Translations under genes and position numbers: made by a program
In this document: positions 2,531 through 51,658 of the stretch, in pieces
Numbering within the stretch: position 1 is the first letter of the stretch
Layout of the letters: each line of letters begins with the position of its first letter
DNA from: an uncultured Gammaproteobacteria bacterium
GTDB taxonomy: Bacteria; Patescibacteriota; Patescibacteriia; Patescibacteriales; BS150m-G62
Assembly (NCBI GenBank): GCA_964569045.1
Contig: CAZMSR010000004.1
Coordinates: 6,244 to 70,243 of the forward strand
Length of the DNA stretch: 64,000 nt
Direction of reading: 5' to 3'
Notes under the pieces: model-generated
Told to the model about the DNA's origin: nothing
The model's database searches: none
The model's input: only the letters and a program-made list of their open reading frames with translations

Positions 2531-2570
2531 AAAAATATTTTTATCTTTAAGCGTTAATTGAGGATGGTAT
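2531..2570. repeat. solo end of the TATAC-type intergenic repeat family
   Basis: AAAAATATTTTTATCTTTAAGCGTTAATTGAGGATGGTAT is about 37/40 identical (by eye) to 5711-5750. No matching left arm was found nearby. Confidence 0.6.
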
Positions 2571-4031: not shown

Positions 4032-5582
4032 TTAAAGTGCTCTAGAATAATGATTTTTTAAAAACGTATCGTTTGTTTTTATGTCTAGTAGCTTAAGGAT
4101 TGTGTGGGCAACGTCATTTAAGGAACCGGTTGTTCTTAAAAGGCTTAGGTCTTCTTCATTTAATTCAAATTGATTTATGTTCTTTCCTTCATATTTTTTG
4201 TTGATAATTAAAAAAGGGACAGAATGATCGGTGTGTTCTGTTTCAATTGTTTCTATTAATGGATTATACATATATTCAGCATTTCCAAAAGCTGATGTTA
4301 TTAGTAGTGTGCCATTTTTTTTAATTGTTTGATTGTATATTATGCCAATTTGTTCATCAATTTTTTCTATGGCTTTAATTGTCTTATTTATATTTCCTGT
4401 ATGAGCTGCTGTGTCAATTAAGTTGTAAGTTGTAATTATTAAATGATATTTATTGGTGTTTATTTGATTAATTAGTTCTTTTGTGATTTTTATGATATTA
4501 TTTTTTTGATTTAATGTAGTGCTATTTGGTATTAGGATTGTGCTTGTGTTTTTGTTATTTTCTGAGTTTGCACCTAAAAAATACTCCATAAATGCTAGTG
4601 ACTTACTGTCTGTAATTATTAATTGATTTTTGTTGTTTTCTGAAATTAATGAATTTAGTGATAATTGTTTGTTGTTTTTTTGTGTAAAAAAATCATTGTT
4701 TACTATGTGGCCTTTTGATGTAAAAATATTTAAGTGTAAATTTTTGTCGGTTGATTTTTTTTTAAATTTATTAAATTTTTTGCTATAAATTGAATGAAGT
4801 AATTGCCTTAGTTCATATAGATTATTATTAATAAATAGCAAACAATCATTTTTTTTAATTTGTCCTATCGGTATATTTTCTTTGCTTGCTATAATTGGTG
4901 TGATCTCATTATCATTTATAGAACTGTTGTAGTTTTTTAAAATTGAGTCAATTATAGAATTAGTTAAATTACCTGAATTTTCTATTAGTGCTTTGTATGT
5001 TTTTTCTGTTCTTATATAATAGTTTTTTGTGTCTAGAGCATAAAAACCGCCAATTACACTGCAGAGTTTAATTTTATTTTTTATTATTTTCTCTAAATTT
5101 TTTATTAATTCAAAGCCTTCTTTTTTAAAGTTATTTTTGTTATTAAGAAAAATATGTAAAAATATTTTTTTTATATTTTTTTGTTTTAATATTTCTATAA
5201 ATAAAACTATGTTGGATGTAATAGAATTTTCATGCTTTGAATTTATGGAGCTAAATAAATGTATGCTTGATTTATTCTTTGCTGCATGATTTATTGTTTT
5301 TTTTATACATAGATCATTTATTATATCTGACTTTAATAAAGTGATTGGTTGATTTATCGTGTGTTCGTTATTATTCTGTCCAAGAGCTTGATAGTTGGTG
5401 ATTGTATTGTATATTGGATTGGCTGAATTTGCAGTTGATAAAGTAGTAGCAGGATATGTAGAAAATAGTGATTTAAAATTTGGTGTTTTTGCATTTAAAA
5501 TTGCATTTCCGTCGTATTTTTGAAAAATACCCCAACCTTCGATATTAAGTAGTACTAATGGCTTGGTTTGTTTGTTTGTCAT
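4032..5582 (-). CDS. degenerate paralogue of cofactor-independent phosphoglycerate mutase (probable pseudoenzyme)
   Basis: 516 aa, collinear with the neighbouring gpmI: LVLLNIEGWG vs LIILDGWG, IDTAAHTGN vs APDMIGHTGN, EHTDHSVPFLI vs HSTNQVPFII. The catalytic Ser motif GNSEAGH is replaced by ANSANPI, SDGRDS by LNNKNN, and ADHGN by SAFGN. Confidence 0.75.
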   Translation of the reverse strand: MTNKQTKPLVLLNIEGWGIFQKYDGNAILNAKTPNFKSLFSTYPATTLSTANSANPIYNTITNYQALGQNNNEHTINQPITLLKSDIINDLCIKKTINHAAKNKSSIHLFSSINSKHENSITSNIVLFIEILKQKNIKKIFLHIFLNNKNNFKKEGFELIKNLEKIIKNKIKLCSVIGGFYALDTKNYYIRTEKTYKALIENSGNLTNSIIDSILKNYNSSINDNEITPIIASKENIPIGQIKKNDCLLFINNNLYELRQLLHSIYSKKFNKFKKKSTDKNLHLNIFTSKGHIVNNDFFTQKNNKQLSLNSLISENNKNQLIITDSKSLAFMEYFLGANSENNKNTSTILIPNSTTLNQKNNIIKITKELINQINTNKYHLIITTYNLIDTAAHTGNINKTIKAIEKIDEQIGIIYNQTIKKNGTLLITSAFGNAEYMYNPLIETIETEHTDHSVPFLIINKKYEGKNINQFELNEEDLSLLRTTGSLNDVAHTILKLLDIKTNDTFLKNHYSRAL

Positions 5583-5592: not shown

Positions 5593-5750
5593 ATACCATT
5601 TTCTGCTAACTATCAGGAAAGAATTCCTGAGTTTCAGTTGCAAAACTAACCTCGTGCTCAACATAATTTATTATGATTCGCACGCCGACTTTTTTTTCGC
5701 ACGAAATTCAAAAATATTTTTATTTTTAAGCGTTAATTCCGGATGGTATA
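5593..5750. repeat. TATAC-type intergenic repeat, uninterrupted copy
   Basis: Arms are ATACCAT (5593-5599) and ATGGTAT (5743-5749), with additional partial pairing. The interior aligns with 19598-19742 plus 19903-19926 (CAACATAAT..., GAAATT.A.AAAT.TTTTTATT, GTTAATT..GGA.GGTATA). It fills the whole gap between gpmI and its paralogue. Confidence 0.6.
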
Positions 5751-5755
5751 ATTTT

Positions 5756-7469: not shown

Positions 7470-8732
7470 TTATTTTAATAGTTCTTCAATTTTCATCAAT
7501 CTGTTATATTTTGCTAAACGTTCACTGCGTGATAGTGAACCAGCTTTGATATAGTCTGCGCATACTCCAACTGCTAGGTCAGAAATAAAACTATCACAAG
7601 TTTCTCCACTTCTGTGCGATATCATTATTTTGTGATTATTAGCTTTGGCTAATTTGATGCATTGGATTGTTTCTGTAAGTGACCCTACTTGGTTTGGTTT
7701 AATTAAGATTGTATTAGCTGCTTTATTTTCTATTCCTTTGCATAATCTATCAATATTTGTGACAAATAAATCATCTCCAATTATTAGAATTTTTTTGCCC
7801 ATTTTTTTGTTCCATTCTTGCCATCCTAGCCAATCATCTTCAGCTAAGCCATCTTCTATAGAGATAATAGGATATCTAGAAAGCCAATTTTCATAGAGGT
7901 TAATTAAATTTGTTGAGCTAAAATATGAGCTATCTAGACGAAAAATGTATTTTTTTGTTTTTCGATTATAAAGTTCACTGGACCCAACATCAATACCAAT
8001 ACCAATGTCTTTTTTTGGGGTGAGGCCTGTTTTTATAATGGCTGACATAATAAAATCAAGAGCGTCAACGCTCGAATTAATATCAGGAGCATATCCTCCT
8101 TCATTCCCTGTGTCAGTATCTAGTCCGTTTTTTTTTAAAATATCCCCTAGTTTATGAAAAATTTCTGCACCTATTCTTACTTTTTCTTTGAATTTTATTT
8201 TATTATTTATTGGAATTATTAAAAATTCTTGAAAATCTAGATTAGTGTCGCCATGTTTTCCTCCATTAAAAATATTAAAACATGGAGTTGGTATTTTAAA
8301 ATTGCTAGGTGAAAAATTATATTTTGTGGCAATATATTTAAATAATTCAATTTTTTTTGATTTTGCAGAAGCCCTGGCACAAGCAAGAGAAACTGAAAGT
8401 ATGGAATTAGCACCTAAATTTTTTTTGTTGCTTGTACTGTCAAGTTCGTTCATTATTTGGTCAATAACTTCTTGCCTGTAGACACTAATATTTTTAAGTT
8501 TTGGAAAAATTTTTTTATTTACATTGTTAACAGCCTTTAAAACCCCCATTCCCCTATATCGTGATTTATCACAATCTCTTAATTCAAAAGCTTCATGAGA
8601 ACCTGTTGATGATCCTGATGGTACACTAGCACTAGCAAATATTCTATTACTAAGAATTATTTCAGTCTCTATTGTTGGGTTGCCTCTTGAGTCTAATATC
8701 TCCCTGGCTTGTATTTTTTTTATTTTTGACAT
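7470..8732 (-). CDS. eno: enolase
   Basis: 420 aa with ILDSRGNPTIE, DDLFVTN, IKPNQVGSLTET and SHRSGET motifs. Confidence 0.95.
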   Translation of the reverse strand: MSKIKKIQAREILDSRGNPTIETEIILSNRIFASASVPSGSSTGSHEAFELRDCDKSRYRGMGVLKAVNNVNKKIFPKLKNISVYRQEVIDQIMNELDSTSNKKNLGANSILSVSLACARASAKSKKIELFKYIATKYNFSPSNFKIPTPCFNIFNGGKHGDTNLDFQEFLIIPINNKIKFKEKVRIGAEIFHKLGDILKKNGLDTDTGNEGGYAPDINSSVDALDFIMSAIIKTGLTPKKDIGIGIDVGSSELYNRKTKKYIFRLDSSYFSSTNLINLYENWLSRYPIISIEDGLAEDDWLGWQEWNKKMGKKILIIGDDLFVTNIDRLCKGIENKAANTILIKPNQVGSLTETIQCIKLAKANNHKIMISHRSGETCDSFISDLAVGVCADYIKAGSLSRSERLAKYNRLMKIEELLK

Positions 8733-8747
8733 TTTATATTTTATTAT

Positions 8748-9500
8748 CTAGTGGATTTCATATTCAACAGTTGCGTTTATTTTGATGGTTTCCGCGCCAG
8801 CCTCTAATTCCGGAACTATTTTGTTTATTTGTGAATCTTCAATAGTGGCATATGATTTCATGATTGGGAAAGACCGTGAGTTGCTTTGCTCTGAAAAGCT
8901 GAGTACTTTTCCAAGTTTTACTTCCATTACATCAGCTAATGACTTGGCTTTTTGTTTAGCATTTTTTAATGCTATTATTCGTGCTTCTTGTTTTAAAGTT
9001 TCTTTATTGTCAATTGAAAAATTTAAATCACCAACTTGATTAAAATTGTATTCACCAGCTATTTGCAGAATTTTGTTAATTTTTGTTAGATTAGTTGTTT
9101 TTATTTTTATATTTTGACTTACTATGTATCCTTTTAGAATTCTTTCTCCATCTTTCCAGTCATAGCGTGGATTAATGTTGTAATTTGTGGTTTTAATATT
9201 TTTTTTATCAAGCTTTATTTCATTTTTAAGTTTATTAATTACTGTATTTATTGTTTTTGAATTTATATTTTGCGCTGTATTAATTGATTCATCTTCTGTT
9301 GATAAGCCAATATTGATAGTGACAGTATCTGGTATTCCAATAACTTTTCCTTCGCCTTGCACGGTAATTGAGTTTCTTTGCTCTTCTGTGATGCCAATGA
9401 ATGCATATTTTTTTAAGGCGTTGCGAGAAAGTATGCCAATATAAAATGATGTGATAATAAGAGTAATGCTGATAGTAAGTAATGCTAATTTATGGAACAT
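8748..9500 (-). CDS. SIMPL/DUF541-family secreted protein
   Basis: 250 aa. An N-terminal signal/anchor is followed by ITVQGEGKVIGIPDTVTINIGLSTEDES and a C-terminal ELEAGAETIKINATVEYEI pattern typical of the 26-kDa periplasmic immunogenic protein family. Confidence 0.65.
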   Translation of the reverse strand: MFHKLALLTISITLIITSFYIGILSRNALKKYAFIGITEEQRNSITVQGEGKVIGIPDTVTINIGLSTEDESINTAQNINSKTINTVINKLKNEIKLDKKNIKTTNYNINPRYDWKDGERILKGYIVSQNIKIKTTNLTKINKILQIAGEYNFNQVGDLNFSIDNKETLKQEARIIALKNAKQKAKSLADVMEVKLGKVLSFSEQSNSRSFPIMKSYATIEDSQINKIVPELEAGAETIKINATVEYEIH

Positions 9501-9557
9501 ATTGTGTATTTGATATTTTTTAGGGTGTGATTTAGAAGTTTATTTGCATGATCGTTA

Positions 9558-10763
9558 TTATTTTTTTGAATAGCTTTTTATTGTTAGTCCTTTTAATCCC
9601 GGCATTTCTTTTTGACTTAAATAAGCAAGCATTGCTCCTCCTCCCGTTGAAATCCAGTCAATATACTCTGACATTTTTGTTTGGTGTAGAGCTTCTATTG
9701 TCTCGCCTCCACCAACAACACCAAAAGCAATCCCATTGGATCTTGCTGCTATAGATTTTCCTATGGCTAATGTTCCGTGTTTGAATTTGTTATTTTCAAA
9801 TTTTCCCATAGGACCATTCCATACAATTGTTTTAGCTTTTTTAATAATTTTGGAATATAATTTTATAGTTTCAGGGCCAATGTCAAGTATTTTATCATAT
9901 GCCTGAATATCTTTTATATCTTTTTTTAGTATAGTCTCTCCTGTGTGTTTATCATATGTCCTTATTATTGCATCAATTGGAGTTATAATTTTTTGCTTGT
10001 CTTTGGATGTTAATTTATTTTTTAATAATTTAGTGTTCTTATTGTTTATTTTCGAAACCCCTGTTTCGTTGCCTATTAATTTCAAAAAAGAGTTTGCAAT
10101 AGCCCCACCAAGCAGCATGTAGTTAGCATTTTTGTATAATTTTGCGAGTATCGGAATTTTTGTTTCAAGTTTAATTCCTCCCATAATAACCACGAACGGT
10201 TTCTCAGGGTTGATAATTTTATTTAAGTTGCTAACTTCTCTTTCAAGTAAAAGTCCTCCGTAAGACGGTAAAAAGCGTTTAATGGCATCAATACTTGCGT
10301 GAGATCTGTGGCATACTGCAAATGCATTATTTACGTAAATATCTGCCAATCTTGAAAGTCGTTTTGCGAAATTATACGAATTTTTTGTTTCTTCTGGGTA
10401 ATTTCGAATATTTTCAAGAATAGTTATATCTTCATAATCTGTGTTTGCAATTTTTTCTTCTACTTTAAACCCGCAGCAATCATTTATGAAATTTACTTTT
10501 CCTGTAAATATCTTTCCTGATGTATTTTTTAGGATACTTTGAAGCTCTATGGCTACTTTTCGAAGCGAATTGTTAGCTGTTATATGGCTAATAATAATTA
10601 TTTTGCATTGCTGACGTAATAAGAAAAGAATAGTTAAGATACTTGACTTAATTTTAAAATTATCTGAAATTTCACCTTTATTAAAAGGTACATTAAAATC
10701 AACTCTAAGAAGTATTTTTTTTTCTTTTAAGTCTTTTGCTTGACGTATTGTTTTTATTTGCAT
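9558..10763 (-). CDS. pgk: phosphoglycerate kinase
   Basis: 401 aa with RVDFNVP, CHRSHASI, GGGETIEA and ISTGGGAMLAYL motifs. A TGCTATAAT extended -10 on the minus strand (complement of 10789-10797) lies just upstream. Confidence 0.93.
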   Translation of the reverse strand: MQIKTIRQAKDLKEKKILLRVDFNVPFNKGEISDNFKIKSSILTILFLLRQQCKIIIISHITANNSLRKVAIELQSILKNTSGKIFTGKVNFINDCCGFKVEEKIANTDYEDITILENIRNYPEETKNSYNFAKRLSRLADIYVNNAFAVCHRSHASIDAIKRFLPSYGGLLLEREVSNLNKIINPEKPFVVIMGGIKLETKIPILAKLYKNANYMLLGGAIANSFLKLIGNETGVSKINNKNTKLLKNKLTSKDKQKIITPIDAIIRTYDKHTGETILKKDIKDIQAYDKILDIGPETIKLYSKIIKKAKTIVWNGPMGKFENNKFKHGTLAIGKSIAARSNGIAFGVVGGGETIEALHQTKMSEYIDWISTGGGAMLAYLSQKEMPGLKGLTIKSYSKK

Positions 10764-11900: not shown

Positions 11901-11917
11901 AAGATTTTTTGTAGCCT

Positions 11918-12065
11918 AGAACTCTCACTAAATTCGTTTTTTTATAAATTGTTAATTTTGACTAAATTTTTTTGACCTATCTTCGGGTATGTCACAGAAA
12001 GTATTCAAAAAATTTATTTTAAAATTTTCTAATTTATGAATTAAAGCGAGTTTAGCGACAGTTAT
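11918..12065. repeat. hairpin-type intergenic repeat (inverted copy of the 19744-19901 element)
   Basis: The right arm GCGAGTTTAGCGACAGTT (12046-12063) is 17/18 identical to 19883-19900. The left arm AGAACTCTCACTAAATTCG is degraded. The interior aligns over its length with the reverse complement of 19744-19901. The apex carries a c-TTCG-g tetraloop hairpin (11981-11986). Confidence 0.7.
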
Positions 12066-12138
12066 ATATTAGTTTTTTGCTATTCTTGAATGAATACTTG
12101 TAGTATTTTTAGCTAACAGTAGTTTTTTCTAGAGTTTA

Positions 12139-19532: not shown

Positions 19533-19597
19533 GAATAAATTTTAGCATAATTTTTTATCTGAACCAAGTATGTAGTTGCTGTTGCGTTGTACTTATT

Positions 19598-19926
19598 TAT
19601 ACTATTCCCAATTAAATATTTGGAAAACATTCTTGAATTTCGGCTATAAAATTCGTTTTTCGTTCAACATAATTCATTATTCATTATGCCTCACGCTCCG
19701 GCTTGTTTTTTGTTCGAAATTAAGAAATGTTTTTATTCCAAAGGGACTGTCGCCAAACTCGCTTCAATTCATAAATTTGGAAATTTTAAGATAAATTTTT
19801 TGAATAATTTTTGAGGCATATCCTAAGGTAAGCCAAAAAAATTTGAAAAAAATTTAGCCAAAATTAACAATTTATGGGTGAGGCGAGTTTGGCGACAGTC
19901 CCAAAGTGTTAATTGGGAGTGGTATA
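19598..19926. repeat. composite TATAC-type repeat carrying a nested element
   Basis: Outer arms are TATACTATTCCCAATTAA (19598-19615) and TTAATTGGGAGTGGTATA (19909-19926), 16/18 complementary. Outside the nested insert it is homologous to 5593-5750. Confidence 0.7.
19744..19901. mobile_element. MITE-like element inserted in the outer repeat, with TIRs and a target-site duplication
   Basis: Perfect 20-bp inverted repeat: GGGACTGTCGCCAAACTCGC (19743-19762) and GCGAGTTTGGCGACAGTCCC (19883-19902). It is flanked by direct CAAAG (19739-19743 and 19902-19906). The paralogous site in 5593-5750 is uninterrupted. No coding capacity. Confidence 0.65.
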
Positions 19927-19954
19927 AATTGATTGGTTGTTATTTAAATAAAAT

Positions 19955-19984
19955 AAAAAAATCGGCTATTAGACCGATTTTTTA
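19955..19984 (-). terminator. bidirectional intrinsic terminator after the sigma-r4/HARE-HTH gene
   Basis: AAAAAATCGG-CTATTAGA-CCGATTTTTT begins 14 nt after the stop at 19998. Confidence 0.55.
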
Positions 19985-21143: not shown

Positions 21144-21537
21144 ATGTTGTATTTTGAGGATAAGAATGAATATAATAAACAGTTTTATTAAACTTATTTT
21201 GTTATTTTTTTTGTTGAAATTTAATTTTTATTGTATTGCTCCGTAAGCATATCATATTTTATTATTTTGTCAACATTTTTTAATACATAAAAATAAATTG
21301 TAACTAAAAAAAGCTAATTTTAGCGAAATAATTAAGTAAATTCAGATGGGTTTATAGGTATAATACTATGCCACTATTTTTTTAATTTTTTGTATATCCT
21401 ATATATTAAAAATACAAAAAAATAGTAAATTTAATATTTTTTATATAAGTATTTTTAATTACTTTAATTTGAAATTCGTTTTTTTGTATTAAAAATACAT
21501 CAAAAATAATGCAATGTATTAAAAAATATTGATATTA

Positions 21538-22515
21538 TTACAATTTAATTAAACCATTTTGTGCGCCAACTTTAGCAATAACATTTGCGGAGTTTTTTGA
21601 TGCCAATATGAGTGAATTTTTAATATCCCCATATTTTATTAGACCTGCTATAAAACTTGAATTAAAAGCATCTCCAACACCGGTTGTGTCTACTCTTCTC
21701 TTTTCTTTATATGGTTTTTGAAAGTATATTTTTTTTCCGTTAAAAACATGCGCTCCTTTACGACCAGAAGTTATGAGAACAATTTTCGGACCAAAATTTT
21801 TTATTATTTTTAATAAATTATTTATATTATTTAAAAATTGTTTATTGTGGTTATTATATTTTTTTGAGGCTAATACTAGTTCTAGCGCTTCATCTTTGTT
21901 TAATGATAATACATGTGTTTTTTTTAAATATTTAAGAAGTACAGTATGTTTGTATGTTAGTTGAGCGCTGCCAATGTTCCAGGCAATATTGTTGTGGTTT
22001 GTGCTAAAAATTTGTTTTAAAGTGTCTTTCCAGTTTCCGGCTAAAGATGTTAAGTATATCCAGTCAGTTTTTTTATTTAAAATTTTAAGATCTTTATTTG
22101 TTATTTGTAGTTCTGTATTTGCTCCCCTATTTGAAAATATAACGTGTTCTTTTGCGTGAATAGAGCTGGCAATTAAAAATGAGAAACCTGTCTCAAGGGT
22201 CTTTGATTTTTTTATAAGATTTACGTGTACATTGTATTTTTTTAAATTTTTAATTATGTTTTTGCCTCTATCGTCATTACCTACTGATGTAATAGTGCCT
22301 ACTTTTAAGCCTAGGCTAGCAAAAGACACAGCAGTGTTTGCAGCCCCTCCTCCAAATGTTTTAAATATTTGATCAACTTTAATTTTTGCACCATATTCAA
22401 AAGCTAACATTTTTTGGCAGAGTAGATTTTTTTTATTTTTTAATAGTGTGCATTCACTGGTGTAGAAAGTTATATCTTCAAGTGAAGACCCTATTGTTAT
22501 AACATTAAAATGCAT
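21538..22515 (-). CDS. PfkB-family carbohydrate kinase (ribokinase-like)
   Basis: 325 aa with GGGAANTAV and the C-terminal signature DTTGVGDAFNSSFIAG. Confidence 0.8.
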   Translation of the reverse strand: MHFNVITIGSSLEDITFYTSECTLLKNKKNLLCQKMLAFEYGAKIKVDQIFKTFGGGAANTAVSFASLGLKVGTITSVGNDDRGKNIIKNLKKYNVHVNLIKKSKTLETGFSFLIASSIHAKEHVIFSNRGANTELQITNKDLKILNKKTDWIYLTSLAGNWKDTLKQIFSTNHNNIAWNIGSAQLTYKHTVLLKYLKKTHVLSLNKDEALELVLASKKYNNHNKQFLNNINNLLKIIKNFGPKIVLITSGRKGAHVFNGKKIYFQKPYKEKRRVDTTGVGDAFNSSFIAGLIKYGDIKNSLILASKNSANVIAKVGAQNGLIKL

Positions 22516-28635: not shown

Positions 28636-28719
28636 TTTAATTTATGAGTTATACTCAATTGCTAAATTATTTTCGAAATTAGTTTAACAATTAAGCATAA
28701 AACTAGTTTGACAACAGTT
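28636..28719. repeat. minimal copy of the repeat family (arms back to back, plus a second-type arm)
   Basis: TATACTCAATTGCTAAATTATTTTCG (28650-28675) directly abuts AAATTAGTTTAACAATTAAGCATA (28676-28699); these match the left and right arms of 32785-32943. AAACTAGTTTGACAACAGTT (28700-28719) then resembles the GCGAGTTTAGCGACAGTT arm. Confidence 0.45.
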
Positions 28720-28762: not shown

Positions 28763-28794
28763 AAAAACACCCCAAGTGTCTATGGGATGTTTTT
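28763..28794 (-). terminator. intrinsic terminator after hup
   Basis: AAAAACACCCCA-AGTGTCTA-TGGGATGTTTTT (one mismatch) lies 12 nt after the hup stop. Confidence 0.6.
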
Positions 28795-32639: not shown

Positions 32640-32784
32640 TTATTTAACTATAACATATTATTGGTTAATTTTAAAAAATTAACTTGTACCTGCAAGAAAC
32701 TATCTAAGGCAATTGTTGATTTTTATTTAATTTTACATTTAAAAATTATTCAAAAATTACACCCAATGAAGATGTATAAATAGT

Positions 32785-32943
32785 TATACTTAATCCCTAA
32801 ACTAATTTCGGTAATTTTTTTAAATTTTGGCTGTGGCTTTGAGAAAAAATTTGGTCTATACTACGGCATAAGCAAAATTTTTTCTCTTTGCCTCGCTCGA
32901 AATTAAAAATTTTTTTTCTAAATTAGTTTAGGGATTGAGTATA
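32785..32943. repeat. hairpin-type intergenic repeat with 26-bp TIRs
   Basis: TATACTTAATCCCTAAACTAATTTCG (32785-32810) matches the reverse complement of 32918-32943 (TATACTCAATCCCTAAACTAATTTAG) at 24/26. The apex has a c-TACG-g hairpin near 32861-32866. It is followed by GTTGGGAGTGATGTATA, which resembles the outer-type end. Confidence 0.7.
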
Positions 32944-33010
32944 GTTGGGAGTGATGTATAAAATAATTGTGTTAATTATATAAATATGTAATTCTAATAA
33001 TTAGAGAGTT

Positions 33011-33229
33011 TTGAAATTTATAATAAGTAGATTAGAGATGGAGCTTTGGAATGTATATAGTATTTTTAGTGCTAGCTTAGGTGATCTTTTTAATGAGTTA
33101 TTATTTAGTAACGGATTTGTTTTTTTAGTAAATGGTGTGCCCAATGCATTGTTTGTAATATTTTTTGTTGTTATTATTTATGTTATGGTATGGTATTTGT
33201 CTATTTATTTTTGTCTAAAAAGTAGATAA
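33011..33229 (+). CDS. doubtful small hydrophobic ORF
   Basis: 72 codons from a TTG start (or 63 from the internal ATG), hydrophobic, followed by a weak AAGGG...CCCTTTTTT hairpin. There is no other support. Confidence 0.2.
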   Translation: MKFIISRLEMELWNVYSIFSASLGDLFNELLFSNGFVFLVNGVPNALFVIFFVVIIYVMVWYLSIYFCLKSR

Positions 33230-33272
33230 TCTTAAAATAGTTAAGGGTTTTTGTTAATAGTGCCCTTTTTTA

Positions 33273-33301
33273 TTGACTAATAATTAATTTTAGTATAAAA
33301 T
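33273..33301 (+). promoter_or_regulatory. candidate sigma-70 promoter for rplU
   Basis: TTGACT (33273-33278), 17 nt, then TAAAAT (33296-33301), about 58 nt upstream of the rplU ATG. Confidence 0.35.
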
Positions 33302-33359
33302 TGCAAAAAAAGTCTTTAATGTGTAAGTTAAAGTTTTTAATAATTATTATATTTTATTT

Positions 33360-33677
33360 ATGGCTGATAATAAAATTGCTATCATTAAAACAGGCGGCAA
33401 GCAATATAAAGTGTTAAAAGGAGATTTAATTAAAGTTGAAAAAATAGGAGAAGAGGTAAATAAGAATATTAAGATTAAAACACTCCTAAAATCGAATGTA
33501 GATGGGAGTGATCTTGAATTAGGTAATCCTTTTTTGGATAATAAGGTTGAGGTAAAAATTGTTGGCGGAGGAAAGGCTAAAAAAGTTAATGTTGTGAAGT
33601 ATAAGAATAAAACGCGGTATAAAAGAAATATTGGACATAGACAGCCTTATTCAGAAATAGAAATAACGCAAATATAA
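33360..33677 (+). CDS. rplU: 50S ribosomal protein L21
   Basis: 105 aa with IAIIKTGGKQYKVLKGDLIKVEK...KKVNVVKYKNKTRYKRNIGHRQPY. It is not followed by rpmA. Confidence 0.92.
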   Translation: MADNKIAIIKTGGKQYKVLKGDLIKVEKIGEEVNKNIKIKTLLKSNVDGSDLELGNPFLDNKVEVKIVGGGKAKKVNVVKYKNKTRYKRNIGHRQPYSEIEITQI

Positions 33678-33723
33678 GCATCTTTTATGTATTTTAAAAA
33701 ACTAGCTTTTAAGGTTAGTTTTT

Positions 33724-34323
33724 TTAATTCATAATATTTCTGTATTTAAATGCATTATTTAGAGTTGTTTCGTCGGTGTATTCTAAATTGGACCCCATTG
33801 GGAGTCCTCTGGCTAATTTTGTAATTTTTAAATTATATGTTTTAAGTTTTTTTGCTATATACATTGCTGTTGTCTCACCTTCAATGTTGGGGTTAAAGGC
33901 TAAGATAATTTCTGTTGGTGTAGTTTTTTTTATGTATTCTAATAATTTTTCTATGGCTAAGTGGTTGCTATTTATCCCTTTAGAAATTTCTATGGTCTGA
34001 CCTAGATTAAAATATATGCCAGAGTGTTTGCGAGTTGATTCAATTGTGAGCATATCTCTTGCATCTGACACAATGCATAATATTTTTTTGTCTCTATTTT
34101 TATCTAGGCATATTGTACAAATTTCATTTTCCGCAAGGCAATTGCATAGCTTGCATTCTTTTATTTGTTCTTTTAATTCGATTAGTAACTGAGCTAGTAA
34201 AAAAATATCTTCTTGTTTTTGTTTTAATAAACAAAAAACATATCTTTCGGCTGTTCTTGGCCCGACACCGGGTAGAATTAAAAATGACTTAATCAGTTTA
34301 TTTATAATTTGCGGGTATGTCAT
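33724..34323 (-). CDS. recR: recombination protein RecR
   Basis: 199 aa with LPGVGPRTAERY, a C4 zinc finger (CKLCNC...CTIC) and a Toprim region. Confidence 0.92.
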   Translation of the reverse strand: MTYPQIINKLIKSFLILPGVGPRTAERYVFCLLKQKQEDIFLLAQLLIELKEQIKECKLCNCLAENEICTICLDKNRDKKILCIVSDARDMLTIESTRKHSGIYFNLGQTIEISKGINSNHLAIEKLLEYIKKTTPTEIILAFNPNIEGETTAMYIAKKLKTYNLKITKLARGLPMGSNLEYTDETTLNNAFKYRNIMN

Positions 34324-34330
34324 AAATAAT

Positions 34331-34606
34331 TTATCCTAGTCCCGGTAATCCACCCATTTGCTGCATTTTTTGTGCCATAAGTTTTTGTACTTTTTTTACT
34401 CCATCATTAAAACATTCTTGCAATAATGCTTCTAAATTTTCTTTTTTTAATTCTTCTTTGATTGTTATTGAAGTTACTTCTAGATTGCCATTGATAATAA
34501 TTTTTACTCCATTTTTTTCAATAGTAACACTTTCATCAGCTAAGGCAGACTGCATTTGCTTTGCCTTATCACGCAACTCTTTAAATTGTTTCAGTTTATT
34601 GAACAT
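34331..34606 (-). CDS. ybaB: YbaB/EbfC nucleoid-associated protein
   Basis: 91 aa in the canonical position upstream of recR, with a MQQMGGLPGLG tail. Confidence 0.8.
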   Translation of the reverse strand: MFNKLKQFKELRDKAKQMQSALADESVTIEKNGVKIIINGNLEVTSITIKEELKKENLEALLQECFNDGVKKVQKLMAQKMQQMGGLPGLG

Positions 34607-34629
34607 AATATATTTTTTTATTATTTATT

Positions 34630-36018
34630 TTAAAATTGTGGTGGTGCTTCATGTTTTATGTCAATACTCTTATATGATACAACATCCCGATCAAAATACA
34701 AGTTGATTTTTCCGGTTGGGCCGTTTCTATGTTTTGCTATATATAATTCGGCACTAGTTAGTTCTTCGGGGGTTAGTTCTTCTTCTTTAAAATTTCGATC
34801 AGCTGCTTTCCTGTATAAAAACATTACAATATCAGCATCTTGTTCAATACTTCCAGATTCACGTAAGTGCGACAATTTTGGTATAGCCGGCTTGCTTTGT
34901 TCAACTGTACGAGAAAGTTGGGATAAGGCGATAACAGGTACATCTAGTTCACGAGCAATGCCTTTGAGTCCGCGAGAAATTTCTGCTACTTCTTGCACTC
35001 TATTGTCACCGGATTTGCCCCTTCCTTCCATTAGCTGTAGATAGTCAATTATTATTAAACCTAGTCCTTTTTCAGTTTGAAGTCGTCTAGCCTTTGTTCT
35101 TACTTCCATGATATTGCAATTTGATGTATCGTCAATATGTATTTGAGCATCGGCTAGCTCACCCATTGCTCCTGCAATACGGGCAAAATCATTATTTTCT
35201 TCTGTGTCAGAAAGTTGACCGGTCCTCATTTTCCATAACCCGACTCCGGCATGTGCACAGAGCATGCGGTCAACTAGTTGCTCTTTACTCATTTCGAGAG
35301 AAAATACTCCAACACCTTGCTTGCTTTTTACTGCAGCTTGACGAGCAACATCCAGTACAAATGTAGTTTTTCCAACACTGGGTCGTGCAGCAAGTATTAT
35401 TAAGTCAGATTTTTGCAAGCCTGAGAGTAACTTGTCTAGTTCTTCGTACCCAGTTGGTAAGCCTCTTAGTTGTCCGGATTGCTTGTGTAAATCATCAATA
35501 CGAGTAAAAGCATCGTTAAGTAAAGAGTCAATTGAGCTAAACGCGCTTTTTGTTGAGGTTTGAGAAACAGAAAATAGTTTTGATTCAGCTTCGTCAAGTA
35601 ATCCGTCAATTTCTTCAGCTTCTTGAAACCCAAGAGCGTGAATTTCGCTTGCTGCAGTTATTAAACGTCGCAATATTGCTTTTCTTTGTACGATTTGAGC
35701 ATAATTAACAACATGCGATGATGTTGCTACTGAATTTGATAATTTTAATAGATACGATCTGCCACCTATTTTTTTTAATTTCTTTTTTTCTTCTAGTCGA
35801 TTAGTTAGACTAAGAATGTCAAGTGGTTCATGTTTGGCATAAAGCTCCTGGATTGTTTCAAATATAGTAGCATGAGAGTCTTTGTAAAAGTCGTTTGCTG
35901 TAACTAAATCTGCTATTTTAATAATTGAATCTTTGTCAATCATTAAAGAGCCAATAAGAGATTCTTCAGCTTCAATGTTGTGCGGTGGAACTTTGGTAAG
36001 ATTGTTTTCATTAAACAT
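34630..36018 (-). CDS. dnaB: replicative DNA helicase DnaB
   Basis: 462 aa with PPHNIEAEESLIGSLM, Walker A ARPSVGKTTF, IIIDYLQLM and SQLSR motifs. Confidence 0.95.
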   Translation of the reverse strand: MFNENNLTKVPPHNIEAEESLIGSLMIDKDSIIKIADLVTANDFYKDSHATIFETIQELYAKHEPLDILSLTNRLEEKKKLKKIGGRSYLLKLSNSVATSSHVVNYAQIVQRKAILRRLITAASEIHALGFQEAEEIDGLLDEAESKLFSVSQTSTKSAFSSIDSLLNDAFTRIDDLHKQSGQLRGLPTGYEELDKLLSGLQKSDLIILAARPSVGKTTFVLDVARQAAVKSKQGVGVFSLEMSKEQLVDRMLCAHAGVGLWKMRTGQLSDTEENNDFARIAGAMGELADAQIHIDDTSNCNIMEVRTKARRLQTEKGLGLIIIDYLQLMEGRGKSGDNRVQEVAEISRGLKGIARELDVPVIALSQLSRTVEQSKPAIPKLSHLRESGSIEQDADIVMFLYRKAADRNFKEEELTPEELTSAELYIAKHRNGPTGKINLYFDRDVVSYKSIDIKHEAPPQF

Positions 36019-36122
36019 ATGTGTATCATACGTAATTAATAATAATTATTCAATATTGAGCTGTAAACAAAAAATTCACTAAGAAATGAATTTTTTTTGT
36101 TATGTATGTAATTTGATGTATT

Positions 36123-37154
36123 TTAATTAACTTGTTTTAGTTCGTGGATAATTTGTTCTATTTCACCGTCTAATATTTTTGTGATTCCATGCCAGTTTTT
36201 GTTTATTCTGTGATCTGTTATACGATCTTGAGGAAAATTGTAGGTTCTTATTTTTTCAGATCTGTCGCCACTACCTATTTGAGAGAGTCTAGTGTCTTGA
36301 GTTTCTTTTTGTCTTTTTTCGTCTTCTAATGCTAAAAGTCGTGATCGTAATATTTGCATAGTTTTTTCTTTGTTTTGATGTTGAGATTTTTGATCCTGGC
36401 AACTTACTATTAATCCGCTAGGTATGTGGGTTATACGTATTGCAGAATAGGTAGTATTTACGCTTTGTCCGCCGGGACCTGAAGAGCAAAATGTGTCAAT
36501 GCGTATATCTTCATTTTTTATTTCAAGATCCATGGTTTCTGCTTCTGGTAATACCGCAACTGTTGCAGTTGAGGTATGCACGCGACCTTGTTTTTCAGTT
36601 TCGGGTACTCTTTGCACTCTATGAGTTCCGCTTTCAAATTTTAATTCACCATATGCAGCACTACCTATAATTTCAAAAATTACTTCTTTAAACCCACCGA
36701 TTTCATTTTGACTGCTGGTTAAAATATTTACTTTAAATCTTTTGTTTTCAGCATATTTTGAATACATTCTGAATAATTCTGCTGCAAATAGTGCTGATTC
36801 ATCGCCGCCAGTACCGGCTCGTATTTCCATGATGCAATTTTTTTTGTCCTTTGGGTCTTTTGGTTTTAGCTCTGCTTCAAGTTTTTGTTCTAGAATCGAT
36901 TTTTCTTGCTCTAAACTTTCAATATCATCGCTTGCCATTTTTAAAATCTCTTTATCAGTTTCTGAGGAAATTACTTGCTTGCTTTGATCTATGTTTTTAA
37001 ATACTTGTTCAAGTTTAATAACTAAATTATATGTTGCTTTTTGTTCAGCGTGTTCTTTGGCTACCCGGGCTATTTTTTTAGGGTTATTAATGATATTTGG
37101 GTCTTCAAGTTGCTCTGTTAGATTTAAATATTTTTCTTTAATTTTTTCGTACAT
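36123..37154 (-). CDS. prfA: peptide chain release factor 1
   Basis: 343 aa with the GGQ motif ([10 protein letters not shown]) and an RF1-type tripeptide region ([17 protein letters not shown]). Confidence 0.92.
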
Positions 37155-37217
37155 AAATTTAGCAACTTAAACATTAGCAAATATTTTTGCTACTTGAGTC
37201 ATGTGCTTAAACATTGC

Positions 37218-37514
37218 TTAGTTATTCTTTTTTTCTGCCTTTTTATCAGCTTTTTTTACTGCCTTTTTTGCTCTTTTTATTCTTTTTCCTTTTCTTGTTT
37301 TTGATATTTCTTTTTGAGCTTTAATTTTGGCTTCAAATTTTTCAACGCGGCGTGCAGTGTCAACTAGTTTTTGTTTACCAGTAAAGAAAGGATGACACTT
37401 AGAGCAAAGGTCTGTCTTTATTTCGCTGAGCGTAGAGCCTGTAGTGAATGAATTACCACATGCGCATTCAACTTTAGTATTTGAGTGATATTTTGGATGA
37501 GTATCTTTTTTCAT
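37218..37514 (-). CDS. rpmE: 50S ribosomal protein L31 with Lys-rich C-terminal extension
   Basis: MKKDTHPKY...CACGNSF...[13 protein letters not shown] is the zinc-binding L31 type. About 30 extra K/A-rich residues follow at the C-terminus. Confidence 0.88.
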
Positions 37515-37645
37515 AAATTTTTTTGTAGAGATAATTTTTCATTATTTAGTCTGTATTCTTTATGAAACTAAGATTAGCATAGTTATTCATTGCTGACAAG
37601 AGGTTTTTTAGTGGTTTTTTTAAAAAATAAGTTATTTGTGTAAAT

Positions 37646-38674: not shown

Positions 38675-38830
38675 TTGTTTTCCGTTAATTAAATTATACT
38701 AAATTCATAACCTAATATAAAATTTGAAGTTAGATTATGAGTTTAGTATAATACAGTTATTTGTGGGATAAATTTTTATGCTGTGCGTTGATATTCGTTT
38801 ACTACTTGTCATAATCACATAAGAATGTGA

Positions 38831-41944: not shown

Positions 41945-42089
41945 AATGGTATTATAACATTTTTTTTTATTAATTCCCAGGGTCTTGTGGTAGTTATGTG
42001 GCTATCTAAAAAGTTTAAAAGTTTATTTATTTTTGAATTATTTTATTTCCAATTTTTATTCTTAAATGTATGAGATTTTTTTCGTTTGT

Positions 42090-45034: not shown

Positions 45035-45078
45035 TAATTTTATTAAAGCATAAAATTAGCTAAAAATCAATACTTTTT

Positions 45079-45287
45079 AAAATACCTGCTCATACAACAT
45101 AATACGATTTCTTCACTAAGTGCAATATTGGCAATTTTTTTTTAGCTAAATTAAAGCTATAGTCTTACAACTCTCTTTGGTCGGTCCTAACGGACAAGTA
45201 AGACTATTATCGCTTTATTTAGCTAAAAAATTGAAACATATCGTATATTCGTTCAGAAATGTATTATATTGTATGAGCAGATATTTT
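45079..45287. repeat. 209-bp three-tier palindrome related to the repeat family
   Basis: Outer arms are 45079-45116 and 45251-45287 (AAAATACCTGCTCATACAACATAATACGATTTCT vs reverse complement AAAATATCTGCTCATACAATATAATACATTTCT). Middle arms are TTTAGCTAAATTAAAGC / GCTTTATTTAGCTAAA. Inner arms are TATAGTCTTAC / GTAAGACTAT. The apex is GTCC-TAAC-GGAC (45184-45195). Confidence 0.7.
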
Positions 45288-45515
45288 TTAAAATTTAAAG
45301 ATTTTTTTAACATCTTTTTTTATACTTATTATTTTGTATGCTCCGTAAAAAAAGGTATACGCAATGACTAATACAAATGCTCCTATTACTAAACGAGCTA
45401 AAAAGTCTACCCAGACAATTAAGACTCCTAGAATTAATAGTAGTATTCCGGAAAATATTAATGTATATATAATTCCGTTTACTTTTTTTTGAAGTGGTTT
45501 AAATAATGTAGTCAT
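45288..45515 (-). CDS. small two-TM membrane protein
   Basis: 75-aa ORF with two clear hydrophobic helices. Its stop codon abuts the palindrome. Confidence 0.45.
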   Translation of the reverse strand: MTTLFKPLQKKVNGIIYTLIFSGILLLILGVLIVWVDFLARLVIGAFVLVIAYTFFYGAYKIISIKKDVKKIFKF

Positions 45516-45617
45516 TTGAATGATTTAATATTATATTATTATTCTATCAGAATGAATTACGAAAAACAAAAACAACTCTTTTGATACAGAGTTGTTTTTG
45601 TTAAGTTGATTTGTTGA

Positions 45618-47723: not shown

Positions 47724-47750
47724 CTAGCACTTTAATCATTAGAGTGCTAA
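47724..47750 (-). promoter_or_regulatory. CIRCE operator (HrcA binding site) upstream of groES-groEL
   Basis: CTAGCACTT-TAATCATTA-GAGTGCTAA compares with the consensus TTAGCACTC-N9-GAGTGCTAA. It lies 89 nt upstream of the groES ATG and just downstream of a TGTTATATG extended -10-like box (complement of 47761-47769). Confidence 0.85.
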
Positions 47751-49132: not shown

Positions 49133-49224
49133 GATTTTGACAAATTAGCGATATTTGGATATTATTTTAATATATTTAAATTTATCCAAAATTCATTAAA
49201 TTTTAATTAAAATTAGTAAAAAGT

Positions 49225-49779
49225 ATGAAGAAATTTTTAATAGGTTTATTAGTTTTTGTTATCTTGTGTGGCATGTATACATATTCTACGTATAATAAGT
49301 TAATAACAAAAGATGAAGTTGTTAATAATCAATGGTCTCAGGTTGAGACTCAGTATCAAAGAAGATTTGATTTAATTCCTAATTTAGTTGAATCTGTCAA
49401 GGGTGTTATGAAGCAAGAGAAGGATGTATTTACTCAAATAGCTGAAGCTAGAACTAGATATTCTGGAGCAGCATCATCTAATGATAAGACAGTTGCTGCT
49501 ACTCAGATAGAATCTGCTTTAGGACGACTCTTGGTTGTTATGGAGCGCTATCCTGATCTTAAGTCAGCTCAAAATGTGCAAATTTTAATGGCGCAATTAG
49601 AAGGAGCTGAAAATAGAGTAAGTGTAGAAAGAAAGAGGTATAATGATAAGGCAGCTGATTATAATTTAATAATAAAAAGAGTCCCATCAAGATGGGTGGC
49701 AAGTATTTTTGGATTTGAAGTGCGTAGTTATTTTGAGGCACAAGAAGGCGCAGAAAGTGCTCCAAAAGTTCAGTTTTAG
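49225..49779 (+). CDS. lemA: LemA family protein
   Basis: 184 aa with an N-terminal anchor and the pattern WSQVETQYQRRFDLIPNLV...RYPDLKS...LEGAENRVSVERKRYN. Confidence 0.88.
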   Translation: MKKFLIGLLVFVILCGMYTYSTYNKLITKDEVVNNQWSQVETQYQRRFDLIPNLVESVKGVMKQEKDVFTQIAEARTRYSGAASSNDKTVAATQIESALGRLLVVMERYPDLKSAQNVQILMAQLEGAENRVSVERKRYNDKAADYNLIIKRVPSRWVASIFGFEVRSYFEAQEGAESAPKVQF

Positions 49780-49801
49780 GAATTTGATAGAAAAGTCTTA
49801 A

Positions 49802-50677: not shown

Positions 50678-50749
50678 GTGAATATTTGACTAGCTATTGT
50701 CAAATTGATTTTATTTTGATAATTTATTGTTAATTGAATAGATATTTTT

Positions 50750-50822
50750 GCGCCTATAGCTCAGCTGGTAGAGCAGCTCCCTTTTAAGGAGAAGGTCCTA
50801 GGTTCGAATCCTAGTGGGCGCA
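50750..50822 (+). tRNA. tRNA-Lys (anticodon UUU)
   Basis: Hand-folded cloverleaf. The acceptor stem is GCGCCTA/TGGGCGC. The D arm is GCTC-AGCTGGTA-GAGC. The anticodon arm is GCTCC-CTTTTAA-GGAGA with one 27:43 G-A mismatch. The T arm is CTAGG-TTCGAAT-CCTAG, and the discriminator is A. CCA is not fully encoded (the sequence reads ACCG). Confidence 0.9.
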
Positions 50823-51562: not shown

Positions 51563-51658
51563 GGCAACCATATCGGAGAGCGAGTCTGTCAATAGTTTTG
51601 TGTAAATGACGATTTTGGGTTTAGTTTTTAAGGAAAATTTTAAAAAAATTTTAGTGGC

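Follow-up and report, generated by a model that had tools for sequence, protein, structure and literature searches.

Correia elements of Neisseria end in a conserved 26-bp terminal repeat, TATAG[CT]GGATTAACAAAAATCAGGAC, and an outward-facing end can complete a -10 box. Genomes of the candidate phyla radiation (CPR, Patescibacteria) are small and streamlined, and are usually called poor in mobile DNA. Prokaryotic MITEs in general are defined by terminal inverted repeats (TIRs), direct repeats, AT-rich intergenic sites, stable stem-loops and mutual insertion (Minnick 2024, PMC10969869). The main text of a 2024 MITE survey covering 183,232 genomes does not mention this phylum, and our full-text literature searches for MITEs together with Patescibacteria or candidate phyla radiation returned no relevant paper. 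Two IS families are also pertinent here: the terminal repeat of the IS26/IS6 family is GGCACTGTTGCAAA, with conserved GG at positions 1-2, TGT at 6-8 and G at 10 (PMC8477213), and ISApl4 (IS1595 family, IS1016 subgroup) makes A/T-rich 8-bp target duplications, e.g. TTAATAAA and TTTAATTA (PMC12561309).

The intergenic repeats of the window, i.e. the whole stretch of 64,000 nucleotides analysed here, are small, non-coding, hairpin-shaped MITEs inserted between the genes of a Falkowbacteria-like CPR bacterium, MITEs of a CPR-like genome being what a first-pass annotation of the same DNA had supposed; empty sites, duplications, nesting and copies elsewhere in relatives all bear on this point. Probably, the loci arose by insertion of non-autonomous foldback MITEs from at least three groups, on which DDE transposases with at least two to three specificities act in trans. 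These groups, at least three in number, are family A; families B, C and E, together with G in a relative; and family D, together with Dl and H in relatives. They differ in their termini and in their target duplications (TA or none, 3-5 bp, or 8 bp). Elements range from 50 to 203 nt, none is overlapped by an ORF of >=80 aa, each is bounded by TIRs, and in most of them the two arms are complementary over the entire length (Table 1). Copies per family within the window are few (1-3): family A amounts to 3.3 copies plus one in a relative's contig, L042, and family B to two plus one in metagenome contig L031, and relatives hold 3.4 copies of H and two each of Dl and G.

Table 1. Foldback elements and element remnants of the window (positions are those of the window)
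Feature	Position	Strand	Remarks
A0, solo right-end fragment of family A, 40 nt	2531..2570	.	8 nt upstream of predicted manC-like start
A1, full family-A element, 158 nt	5593..5750	.	TATAC...GTATA-type ends; fills spacer of two iPGM paralogues
B1, family-B foldback element, 148 nt	11918..12065	.	degenerate left terminal repeat; orientation opposite to B2
Putative degenerate B-type terminal-repeat remnant AACTACTGTTAGCTAAAAATAC	12103..12124	-	in extra 73 nt beside B1; ~13/20 by eye, weak
A2, left part; family-A element split by B2	19598..19742	.	full-length alignment with A1 and A3
B2, family-B element, 160 nt, inside A2	19743..19902	.	perfect 20/20 TIR GGGACTGTCGCCAAACTCGC
A2, right part	19903..19926	.	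right terminal repeat ...TTAATTGGGAGTGGTATA
C2, 52-nt mini-element	28649..28700	.	two C-type terminal repeats back to back; 81% self-complementary
Putative B-type terminal-repeat remnant AACTGTTGTCAAACTAGTTT	28700..28719	-	adjoins C2; ~17/22 to B terminal repeat
C1, family-C foldback element, 159 nt	32785..32943	.	TIR TATACTYAATCCCTAAACTAATTT, 24/26; upstream of mltG/yceG, 720-nt divergent spacer
Putative family-A-like right-end scrap GTTGGGAGTGATGTATAAAAT	32944..32964	+	adjoins C1; resembles A2 end TTGGGAGTGGTATAAAT
E, 56-nt mini-element	38695..38750	.	arms TATACTAAAYTCATAAYCTAA; within palindrome 38686-38759
D, 203-nt foldback element 45082-45284	45074..45292	.	ends ATACCTGCTCATAC / ATATCTGCTCATAC

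Since the window has a G+C content of only ~30% and weak AT-rich matches are numerous in it at E 0.01-1, one may ask whether such structures merely reflect chance self-complementarity of AT-rich, low-complexity intergenic DNA. This explanation is already refuted, and its probability is practically nil: a self-complement BLAST of the window yielded seven local palindromes with E<1e-5, all of them intergenic, against a mean of 0.1 in 20 block-wise, composition-preserving dinucleotide shuffles (counts 0, 0, 1, 0...), E-values go down to 1e-29, the terminal repeats are G+C-rich, and other genomes carry copies. Pairwise local-alignment z-scores, computed against 200 shuffles, were 21-29 among A copies, 29 for B1/B2 and 5.8 for C1/C2, so that within families (z 5.8-29) similarity exceeds that of the shuffled controls. 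At each of the loci listed in the first-pass annotation there is indeed a repeat or palindrome, about where it was placed, and the ORF map bears out an intergenic location throughout, the sole overlap being between the right-hand target duplication of D and the stop codon of a 75-aa gene.

Family A is bounded by the terminal repeat TATACCATCCGGAATTAACGCTT, and in A2 the two ends match over 29 nt at 83%. A1 is 68% identical to A2 over 139 nt and 69% identical to A3, the copy in L042 (z 21-22), and the solo end at 2531-2570, already recognised as such, is 92.5% identical to 5710-5749 and is matched by positions 118-158 of the nhmmer A profile (E 0.0012). A3 occupies the QueH-to-PilT spacer, which measures 199 nt in L042, 68 nt in the window and 18 nt in L038; relative to transcription, this copy is turned the other way from A1 and A2. 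In the family-A stem 85.5% of pairs are kept, with eight pairs changed on both sides versus 1-3 in slid controls. The repeat at 19598-19926, previously described as composite, is truly one element nested in another: without the B2 insert and one repeat copy, A2 has the length of A0, A1 and A3 at that point.

The two ends of B2 (19743-19762 and 19883-19902) match at 20/20, as had been stated, and the direct repeat CAAAG stands on either side of B2 (19739-19743 and 19902-19906); we count it as a duplication of 3-5 bp because its copies share with the TIR the latter's outermost G and C. The predicted RNA fold of B2 has -76 kcal/mol. The alignment of 11918-12065 with the reverse complement of 19744-19901 was likewise borne out for 11954-12062 against 19746-19854 (83% over 109 nt, BLAST E 1e-29, z 29). 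In metagenome contig L031 a B-type element recurs with two inverted ends and CTGAG flanking repeats; the interior of C1 is 70% identical to that of this element over 92 nt (z 16), and the BC nhmmer profile also detects B2 (E 0.0013). The ends of C1 (32785-32810 and the reverse complement of 32918-32943) agree at 24/26, as earlier claimed. C1 also has a 10-bp direct repeat, GATGTATAAA, beyond its ends, at distances of 4 nt and 9 nt, which we could reconcile with no boundary model. C2 is 74-78% identical to both C1 ends (z 5.8). The E palindrome is 78% self-complementary over 74 nt (E 3e-15), and its similarity to C2 (z 4.0) and C1 (z 3.3) is weak. A2, A3, C1, C2 and E are all flanked as TA/TAC...GTA/TA; TA being palindromic, it may belong to the terminal repeat of A, C and E, from whose palindromic terminus a duplication is not separable.

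D carries a perfect 8-bp duplication, TTTTTAAA, at 45074-45081 and 45285-45292, has ends that match at ~22/24 and a predicted RNA fold of -86.6 kcal/mol (z -12.7), and agrees at ~19/24 with the terminal repeat of Dl, a family of the L047/L049 genome. Perfect 8-bp duplications were also found in relatives, at Dl1 (CTAAATCA), Dl2 (ATTACTTT) and H2 (TAATTATA); no clean flanking duplication was found for B1, H1, H3 or G1. The D/Dl/H-type ends (ATAGCTG, GTAACTG, ATACCTG) keep a CTG core, and their tip is not GGG. Three full copies of H and a fragment, 94-97% identical, are present in L045, the two copies of Dl are 97% identical, and both copies of G are in L042; one contig, L048, begins within a Dl copy. 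H copies differ in their orientation relative to genes, and so do B1 and B2. In the relative L050 we also noticed an apparent in-frame G-like insertion of ~55 aa in a GT4 glycosyltransferase.

Unoccupied orthologous sites, proposed earlier as a check, were found in syntenic relatives. At five or six syntenic sites these have 1-127 nt, or overlapping genes, where the window has 156-465 nt; relatives at 52-84% protein identity to the window are distant, so that a deletion could in principle account for an "empty" site. The two iPGM genes around A1 are 173 nt apart in the window, 80 nt apart in L042 and overlapping in L038; the spacer between PilT and a 108-aa gene, occupied by B1, is 238 nt in the window, as against 6 and 1 nt in L038 and L042, respectively; that of A2/B2 is 465 nt against 85 nt in a relative. 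The HU-to-Sua5 spacer with C2 measures 216 nt (L045, 91 nt; L047, 127 nt), the ClpB-to-MraY spacer with E 156 nt (L049, 28 nt; L045, 27 nt), and the spacer with D, from the 75-aa gene to a 552-aa gene, 253 nt (L049, 65 nt; L050, 20 nt). At the D site, five contigs from the same population showed no presence/absence polymorphism.

No transposase appears among the Pfam labels of the window, in agreement with the first-pass annotation, or in those of ~140 kb of relatives' loci. An exact scan with the B terminal repeat gave 12 single hits in 185,579 species genomes (the source genome not being among them), all in GC-rich, unrelated genomes and at about chance level, and 20 hits in JGI metagenomes, of which only L031 is convincing. 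Viral contigs scanned for terminal repeats of all five types (A, B, C, D/Dl, H) gave chance-level single hits only, and none of the exact terminal-repeat scans yielded an IS with matching ends. Contigs L027 and L033, also among the JGI hits, contain one end and three GCCAAACT repeats, and were left aside because neither a partner end nor a long ORF (code 11 or code 25) is present.

In the mechanism that we favour, a DDE-type transposase supplied in trans would bind both terminal repeats of an element and integrate it at staggered cuts in AT-rich spacers, typically between the terminator or stop codon of one gene and the promoter of the next. Repair of these cuts would leave a target duplication of 8 bp in D/Dl/H and of 3-5 bp in B, and in A/C/E either TA or no duplication at all; such group-specific lengths imply at least two or three transposase specificities. 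The repeat families, their nesting, the duplications and the empty orthologous sites are observed directly; the kind of enzyme we infer. The complementarity of the hairpin arms may be maintained because it helps end pairing or stabilises the element, and copies within former operons (PilT/108-aa gene and iPGM/iPGM) are probably co-transcribed as mRNA hairpins.

One may also consider mobilisation as single-stranded DNA by a tyrosine HUH transposase, the elements being REP/REPIN-RAYT doublets or palindromic elements derived from IS200/IS605, a type of mobilisation that had been suggested earlier. Folding over the whole length, the compensatory pairs of family A, the lack in A, C and E of any duplication beyond a possible TA, and the failure to find a DDE transposase in the window or relatives' loci would all suit it. 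Nevertheless we regard it as very unlikely, as the ends are symmetric TIRs rather than the asymmetric sub-terminal hairpins of IS200/605 (IS200/IS605 PATEs have asymmetric ends, no TIRs and no duplication), and as the duplications are perfect at 8 bp (D, Dl1, Dl2, H2) and 5 bp (B), whereas Y1 transposition makes none. Moreover, no Y1_Tnp or RAYT gene is present in the window or relatives' loci, and the elements are AT-rich and 150-200 nt long, REPs being GC-rich and 20-40 nt. That all seven loci represent a single diverged family with a GC[TC]AAA[CT]T core, as the first-pass annotation had it, is highly improbable: A/B, A/D and B/D alignments do not rise above shuffles, nhmmer profiles of one group do not detect another, target duplications differ between groups, and the window contains the core 26 times where 20.4 +/- 4.4 occurrences are expected, so that this 8-mer alone is not a signature. 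In favour of a single family, the terminal repeats of B can be aligned with those of C (...TC.CC(T)AAACT..TT), a sub-terminal TTTTGGCT / AGCCAAAA being present in both, B-type ends enclose a C-like interior in the L031 element, TATAC begins both A and C, and G2 of L042 has a B-like end, GAGACATGTCGCCAAA.

The very stable folds (z -12.7 for D), together with the compensatory changes in family A, might suggest selected structured RNAs or cis-regulatory hairpins (terminators, attenuators, RNase III sites, sRNA genes) rather than mobile DNA. A long palindrome upstream of mltG does recur in three genomes (C1 in the window, H1 in L045, Dl1 in L047), but the three come from unrelated sequence families, and relatives lack elements at orthologous sites. 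Both orientations relative to transcription occur, and the better-folding strand is unrelated to the transcribed one, B1 and B2 both favouring the + strand although they are opposed; strand asymmetry of folding, tried as a mark of RNA-level selection, was inconsistent across copies. Some copies have UNCG- and GNRA-like apical loops. The small apical tetraloop hairpin that had been ascribed to every copy is present, but a small loop at the centre is a feature of every near-perfect palindrome, and B1 and B2 have no conserved loop sequence. The flanks have a T-run/hairpin/A-run arrangement that is not terminator-like, and canonical short terminators occur separately, beside the elements. Scans for promoters and terminators at the B1 and A2/B2 loci showed no enrichment within the elements, which led us to drop the terminator idea and to claim no promoter function. 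With Rfam, at gathering and E-value thresholds, no family matches the elements and only tRNA-Lys passes, the similarity of B2 to a plant miRNA hairpin model being at chance level (27.8 bits versus a gathering score of 80). Thus, we consider an RNA function instead of mobility to be most improbable.

A further explanation, which we hold to be unlikely, is that these elements constitute a foldback superfamily specific to the CPR lineage and not yet described, distinct from ordinary IS-derived MITEs and moved by an enzyme that is either unknown or exogenous, borne by host or phage. Its features could be modular terminal repeats, in which a common inner ...CYAAACT... / AGCCAAAA domain is combined with interchangeable tips and an IS26-type signature is joined to a non-IS26 duplication; compensatory change that keeps the arms complementary; in-frame insertion into genes, as in the palindromic elements of Rickettsia (RPEs); and a location at the junction of a multi-gene inversion. 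If so, the elements would be the chief source of structural change in streamlined genomes that seemingly lack resident transposases.

To return to insertion by DDE transposases acting in trans: among the Falkowbacteria-like relatives, each genome has foldback families of its own that were amplified recently. These do not change the general understanding of MITEs. They offer markers for strain or lineage typing, explain contig breaks and unusually long spacers in these MAGs, and give a way to seek the missing transposases. The elements split former operons and adjoin the edge of a 4-kb inversion, and so may drive local rearrangement; in L045, a test for exchanged duplications that would mark an H1/H3-mediated inversion was negative.

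How, then, do these elements compare with known systems? Like REP/REPIN-RAYT and ERIC sequences, they are intergenic imperfect palindromes with long hairpins and compensatory stem change, but unlike REP/REPIN-RAYT they have duplications, are AT-rich and far longer than REPs, and no RAYT was found in the window or relatives' loci. The B terminal repeat, GGGACTGTCGCCAAAC / GGGACTGTCGCC, has all conserved positions of the IS26 family and agrees with IS26 itself at 9 of the first 11 positions; IS26-family elements, however, make 8-bp duplications and move by cointegrates only, whereas the repeats beside B2 and the L031 element, both of them simple insertions, measure 3-5 bp, and an IS6-type transposase was not found in the window or relatives' loci. 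A/T-rich duplications of 7-9 bp, as in IS1595/IS1016, are present at D, Dl1, Dl2 and H2 (8 bp; TTTTTAAA, ATTACTTT and TAATTATA for D, Dl and H), and the ISApl4 end GGGGCTGTACTAGA has a ...CTG core in common with ATAGCTGCTCAC of Dl and GGGACTGT of B. The D/Dl/H tips are ATA or GTA, however, not GGG, and B has the GGG tip without an 8-bp duplication; as no IS1595/IS1016 transposase was found, this resemblance is a lead rather than a test.

With prokaryotic MITEs as a whole (PMC10969869), the elements have in common small size, lack of ORFs, TIRs with direct repeats, AT-rich intergenic sites, stem-loops, nesting, several copies, and presence or absence between genomes. They differ in that no cognate IS or transposase was identified in the window or the ~140 kb of relatives' DNA, in that several unrelated families coexist in one lineage with a genome of roughly 1-Mb class, and in that arm complementarity spans the element instead of its ends only. 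RPEs resemble them as palindromes of ~150 bp that form several families in small, AT-rich, reduced genomes with no known transposase, and the apparent in-frame G-like insertion of L050 resembles RPEs too; all window copies are intergenic, though, and several target duplications here are perfect, whereas RPEs have no clear ones. Correia elements (CREE/NEMIS), to which the first-pass annotation had likened the family along with ERIC, are similar in size (100-200 bp), in a terminal repeat of ~26 bp starting with TATA, in a possible TA target and in an intergenic location, often within operons; as for the -10 box, the right end of family A, ...ATGGTATA/AT, reads TGGTATAAT, although a simple promoter scan of our elements shows no enrichment. 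The analogy, as with ERIC, is functional only and does not extend to sequence membership. For Correia elements, the A repeat TATACCATCCGGAATTAACGCTT and the C repeat TATACTYAATCCCTAAACTAATTT miss the Correia repeat, the common part being only TATA and a GGAATTAAC-like stretch, there is no sequence similarity, the host phylum is different, and TATAC ends occur in A, C and E but not in B and D. Correia elements and RPEs are analogues of the elements described here, not their relatives.

A self-complement search of the window gave seven local palindromes at E<1e-5 (Table), against a mean of 0.1 in 20 composition-preserving shuffles, and the repeats are thus real. The pairings claimed in the first-pass annotation were recovered, i.e. 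24/26 positions for the terminal inverted repeats of 32785-32943, 20/20 for the ends of 19743-19902, and a match of 11954-12062 to the reverse complement of 19746-19854 (83% over 109 nt, BLAST E 1e-29). For the 245-nt hairpin at 45062-45306 the folding energy is -86.6 kcal/mol, as opposed to -36.5 +/- 3.9 in shuffles. The palindrome at 21415-21563 is weak (149 nt, 60%) and lies in an AT-rich 394-nt spacer (21144-21537; 34 nt in L050, a relative's locus) that also holds C-like scraps, e.g. TTAATTATTTCGCTAAAATTAGC; these may be decayed elements.

Syntenic loci of relatives were obtained via PilT, MltG and a 552-aa protein, and empty sites were found there: the orthologous spacers are shorter at the B1, A1, D, E, C2 and A2/B2 sites (Table), and at the B1 site the flanking coding ends align cleanly on both sides between genomes. 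The reverse case also occurs, since a family-A copy (A3, L042 9829-9990), opposite in orientation relative to transcription, sits in a 199-nt QueH/PilT spacer that without it measures 68 nt in the window and 18 nt in L038, a locus with no such elements in 20.5 kb.

Elements and promoter-like sites in the window, with spacer lengths (for mltG/yceG, spacer coordinates) here and at loci of relatives (L numbers)
Feature	Coordinates	Palindrome (E<1e-5)	Spacer	Window	Relatives
A0 (solo end)	2531-2570
A1	5593-5750		iPGM / iPGM	173 nt	L038 genes overlap, L042 80 nt
B1	11918-12065	11917-12066	PilT / 108-aa gene	238 nt	L038 6 nt, L042 1 nt
A2, holding B2	19598-19742 + 19903-19926; B2 19743-19902	19743-19902	sigma-like / DUF8128	465 nt	L050 85 nt
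Weak palindrome		21415-21563
C2	28649-28700	28649-28700	HU / Sua5	216 nt	L045 91 nt, L047 127 nt
C1	32785-32943	32785-32943	upstream of mltG/yceG	32640-33359	L045 9681-10000, L047 9642-10000
E	38695-38750	38686-38759	ClpB / MraY	156 nt	L049 28 nt, L045 27 nt
D	45082-45284	45062-45306	75-aa / 552-aa gene	253 nt	L049 65 nt, L050 20 nt
Extended -10 sites	19533-19560, 32640-32660, 41945-41965		upstream of minus-strand starts

The composite locus at 19598-19926 records one insertion within another. Its outer sequence is a family-A element that can be aligned with A1, A0 and A3 to the left and right of the interrupting B2, which itself has perfect 20-nt terminal repeats and is bordered by a CAAAG direct repeat (19739-19743 and 19902-19906); once B2 and one CAAAG copy are taken out, the family-A length is restored exactly. 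The terminal repeat's outermost G and C also form part of CAAAG, which puts the duplication at 3-5 bp. A B-type element in another locus (L031) has CTGAG on both sides, and D is flanked on both sides by TTTTTAAA, the right copy including the stop codon of the conserved 75-aa gene. Perfect 8-mer duplications were found in relatives, in the families Dl (Dl1 CTAAATCA, Dl2 ATTACTTT) and H (H2 TAATTATA). The three duplication classes imply that the enzymes involved are of two or three specificities at the least. C1 has a 10-bp direct repeat, GATGTATAAA, 4 nt to its left (32771-32780) and 9 nt to its right (32953-32962), a placement that does not agree with a simple duplication model.

The annotation had grouped all copies in one family, which all-vs-all local alignment (200 dinucleotide shuffles per pair) does not support. 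A1, A2 and A3 are related to each other (z 21-29), as are B1 and B2 (z 29), and the L031 element is close to C1 (z 16) and less so to B1 and B2 (z 6-9), with lower values for C1/C2 (z 5.8) and C2/E (z 4.0), while A vs B, A vs D and B vs D are at shuffle background. In nhmmer searches the B profile matched the L031 element over its full length (E 2e-5) and a profile built from L031 and C1 recovered B2 (E 0.0013); no profile reached A or D. The proposed shared core is real for B/C(/E), because B and C are collinear in a multiple alignment, with a common end (...TC.CC(T)AAACT..TT); both also have sub-terminal TTTTGGCT / AGCCAAAA, A/T runs and an apical hairpin. As a family-wide 8-mer the core is not enriched in the window (26 vs 20.4 +/- 4.4 expected). 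D is present in a single copy in the window, its ends (ATAYCTGCTCATACAAYATAATAC) matching those of Dl (ATAGCTGCTCACACAACATATAGT) at ~19/24.

Relatives carry families of their own: two copies of G in L042, three full copies of H (94-97% identity) and a fragment in L045 (GCA_016784175.1), and two copies of Dl (97%) in the L047/L049 genome. Contig L048 starts inside a Dl copy (1-54), and metagenome assemblies therefore break at these repeats. Upstream of mltG/yceG, three genomes each have a foldback family of a different kind (C1; H1; Dl1 with a solo H-like end), and this spacer looks like an insertion hot spot. In the window the block rplU-recR-ybaB-dnaB-prfA-rpmE (33360-37514) runs opposite to its orientation in L045/L046 and L047/L049, the L050 comparison covering only rplU downstream of MraY. 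Of its junctions in the window (37515-37645 and 32640-33359), one contains C1, and in L045 H copies lie at both equivalent junctions (4712-4900 and 9765-9952), where no exchanged duplications were found. L050 has an 80-nt palindrome (9125-9204) that is 66% similar to family G over 80 nt (E 4e-6). It is placed in frame within a GT4 glycosyltransferase gene (8413-9729) and matches a ~55-aa insert that falls between positions below 45 and 45 of the Pfam Glycos_transf_1 profile; this would be an RPE-like intragenic insertion. Metagenome locus L033 (3268-3340; also L027) has one B-type end followed by three direct GCCAAACT repeats ~20 nt apart, on a contig (43% G+C) that has no partner end and in which neither code 11 nor code 25 gives long ORFs.

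Other readings of the hairpins fare less well. Known RNAs are ruled out by Rfam, where tRNA-Lys alone reached the gathering score and matches below it were chance hairpins, and nothing pointed consistently to one strand as a functional RNA, the better-folding strand not following the transcribed one. Neither are the elements terminators, as ordinary short GC-stem/T-run terminators adjoin them (19956-19983, 28763-28794, 45562-45602) and the long hairpins are preceded by a T-run and followed by an A-run. Family A folds end to end: in the three-copy alignment 85.5% of cells pair, vs 37-47% with slid partners, and eight pairs are altered on both sides, vs 1-3 in slid controls, moderate evidence from three sequences that complementarity is maintained. 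Read outward, its right end is a consensus extended -10 (TGGTATAAT in A1, 5742-5752; TGGTATAAA in A2, 19918-19928) aimed antisense into the upstream gene, which would be alike in principle to Correia elements.

The window (~30% G+C, nearly all genes on the minus strand) carries CPR-typical genes: two iPGM paralogues, PilT, HU, MltG/YceG, GroES/EL, ClpB, a sigma-r4/HARE-HTH protein, DUF8128 and a 1407-aa Laminin_G_3 protein. Exact look-up found its proteins on 77-80 kb metagenome scaffolds (SUTE22-1 SAMN10231914; JGI 3300008627), and among named homologues the nearest belong to Candidatus Falkowbacteria or the Patescibacteria group. Two stretches in direct repeat (56630-59651 and 60979-64000, period 4349 nt), 100% identical and reaching the window end, represent either a second, tandem copy of the Laminin_G_3/Ig-repeat gene or an error of assembly. 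Upstream of groES, after a TTGACA...TGTTATATG promoter-like site, lies a CIRCE-like operator, TTAGCACTC-N9-AAGTGCTAG (47724-47750, minus strand). Extended -10 sites (TGCTAAAAT, TGTTATAGT, TGTTATAAT) just 6-8 nt ahead of the ATG of some operon-leading genes suggest that these may have leaderless mRNAs; only 6/53 genes have the strict pattern. A plus-strand islet (49200-53200), with tRNA-Lys (50750-50824) and a YhcG/DUF1016 PD-(D/E)XK-type protein (51856-52827), does not have the same genes as the corresponding part of L049 and may be an integrated element.

The best-supported account is that of non-autonomous elements moved in trans by DDE transposases, with the target cut staggered at transposition. 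Movement of the IS200/605 type, suggested earlier by analogy, or of the RAYT type is disfavoured by symmetric terminal repeats with duplications. The window indeed holds no transposase, as had been noted, nor was one seen in ~140 kb of related loci or found by exact scans with the terminal repeats. The elements fit the published definition of prokaryotic MITEs (PMC10969869) in all respects except an identified partner IS; the MITE assignment stood, with Correia and ERIC as analogues, like Rickettsia palindromic elements. No account of MITEs in Patescibacteria turned up in the literature that could be searched, and we therefore rate these as additional examples of a known element type. Several likenesses are leads only. 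The B end GGGACTGTCGCC has all conserved terminal-repeat positions of the IS26 family (GG at 1-2, TGT at 6-8, G at 10; PMC8477213), a family that makes 8-bp duplications, whereas B leaves 3-5-bp repeats. The A/T-rich 8-bp duplications seen with D/Dl/H resemble the ones of ISApl4 (IS1016/IS1595-type; PMC12561309), although the tips are ATA/GTA rather than GGG. By analogy with Correia elements, a TA-duplicating enzyme could fit the TATAC...GTATA ends of A/C/E.
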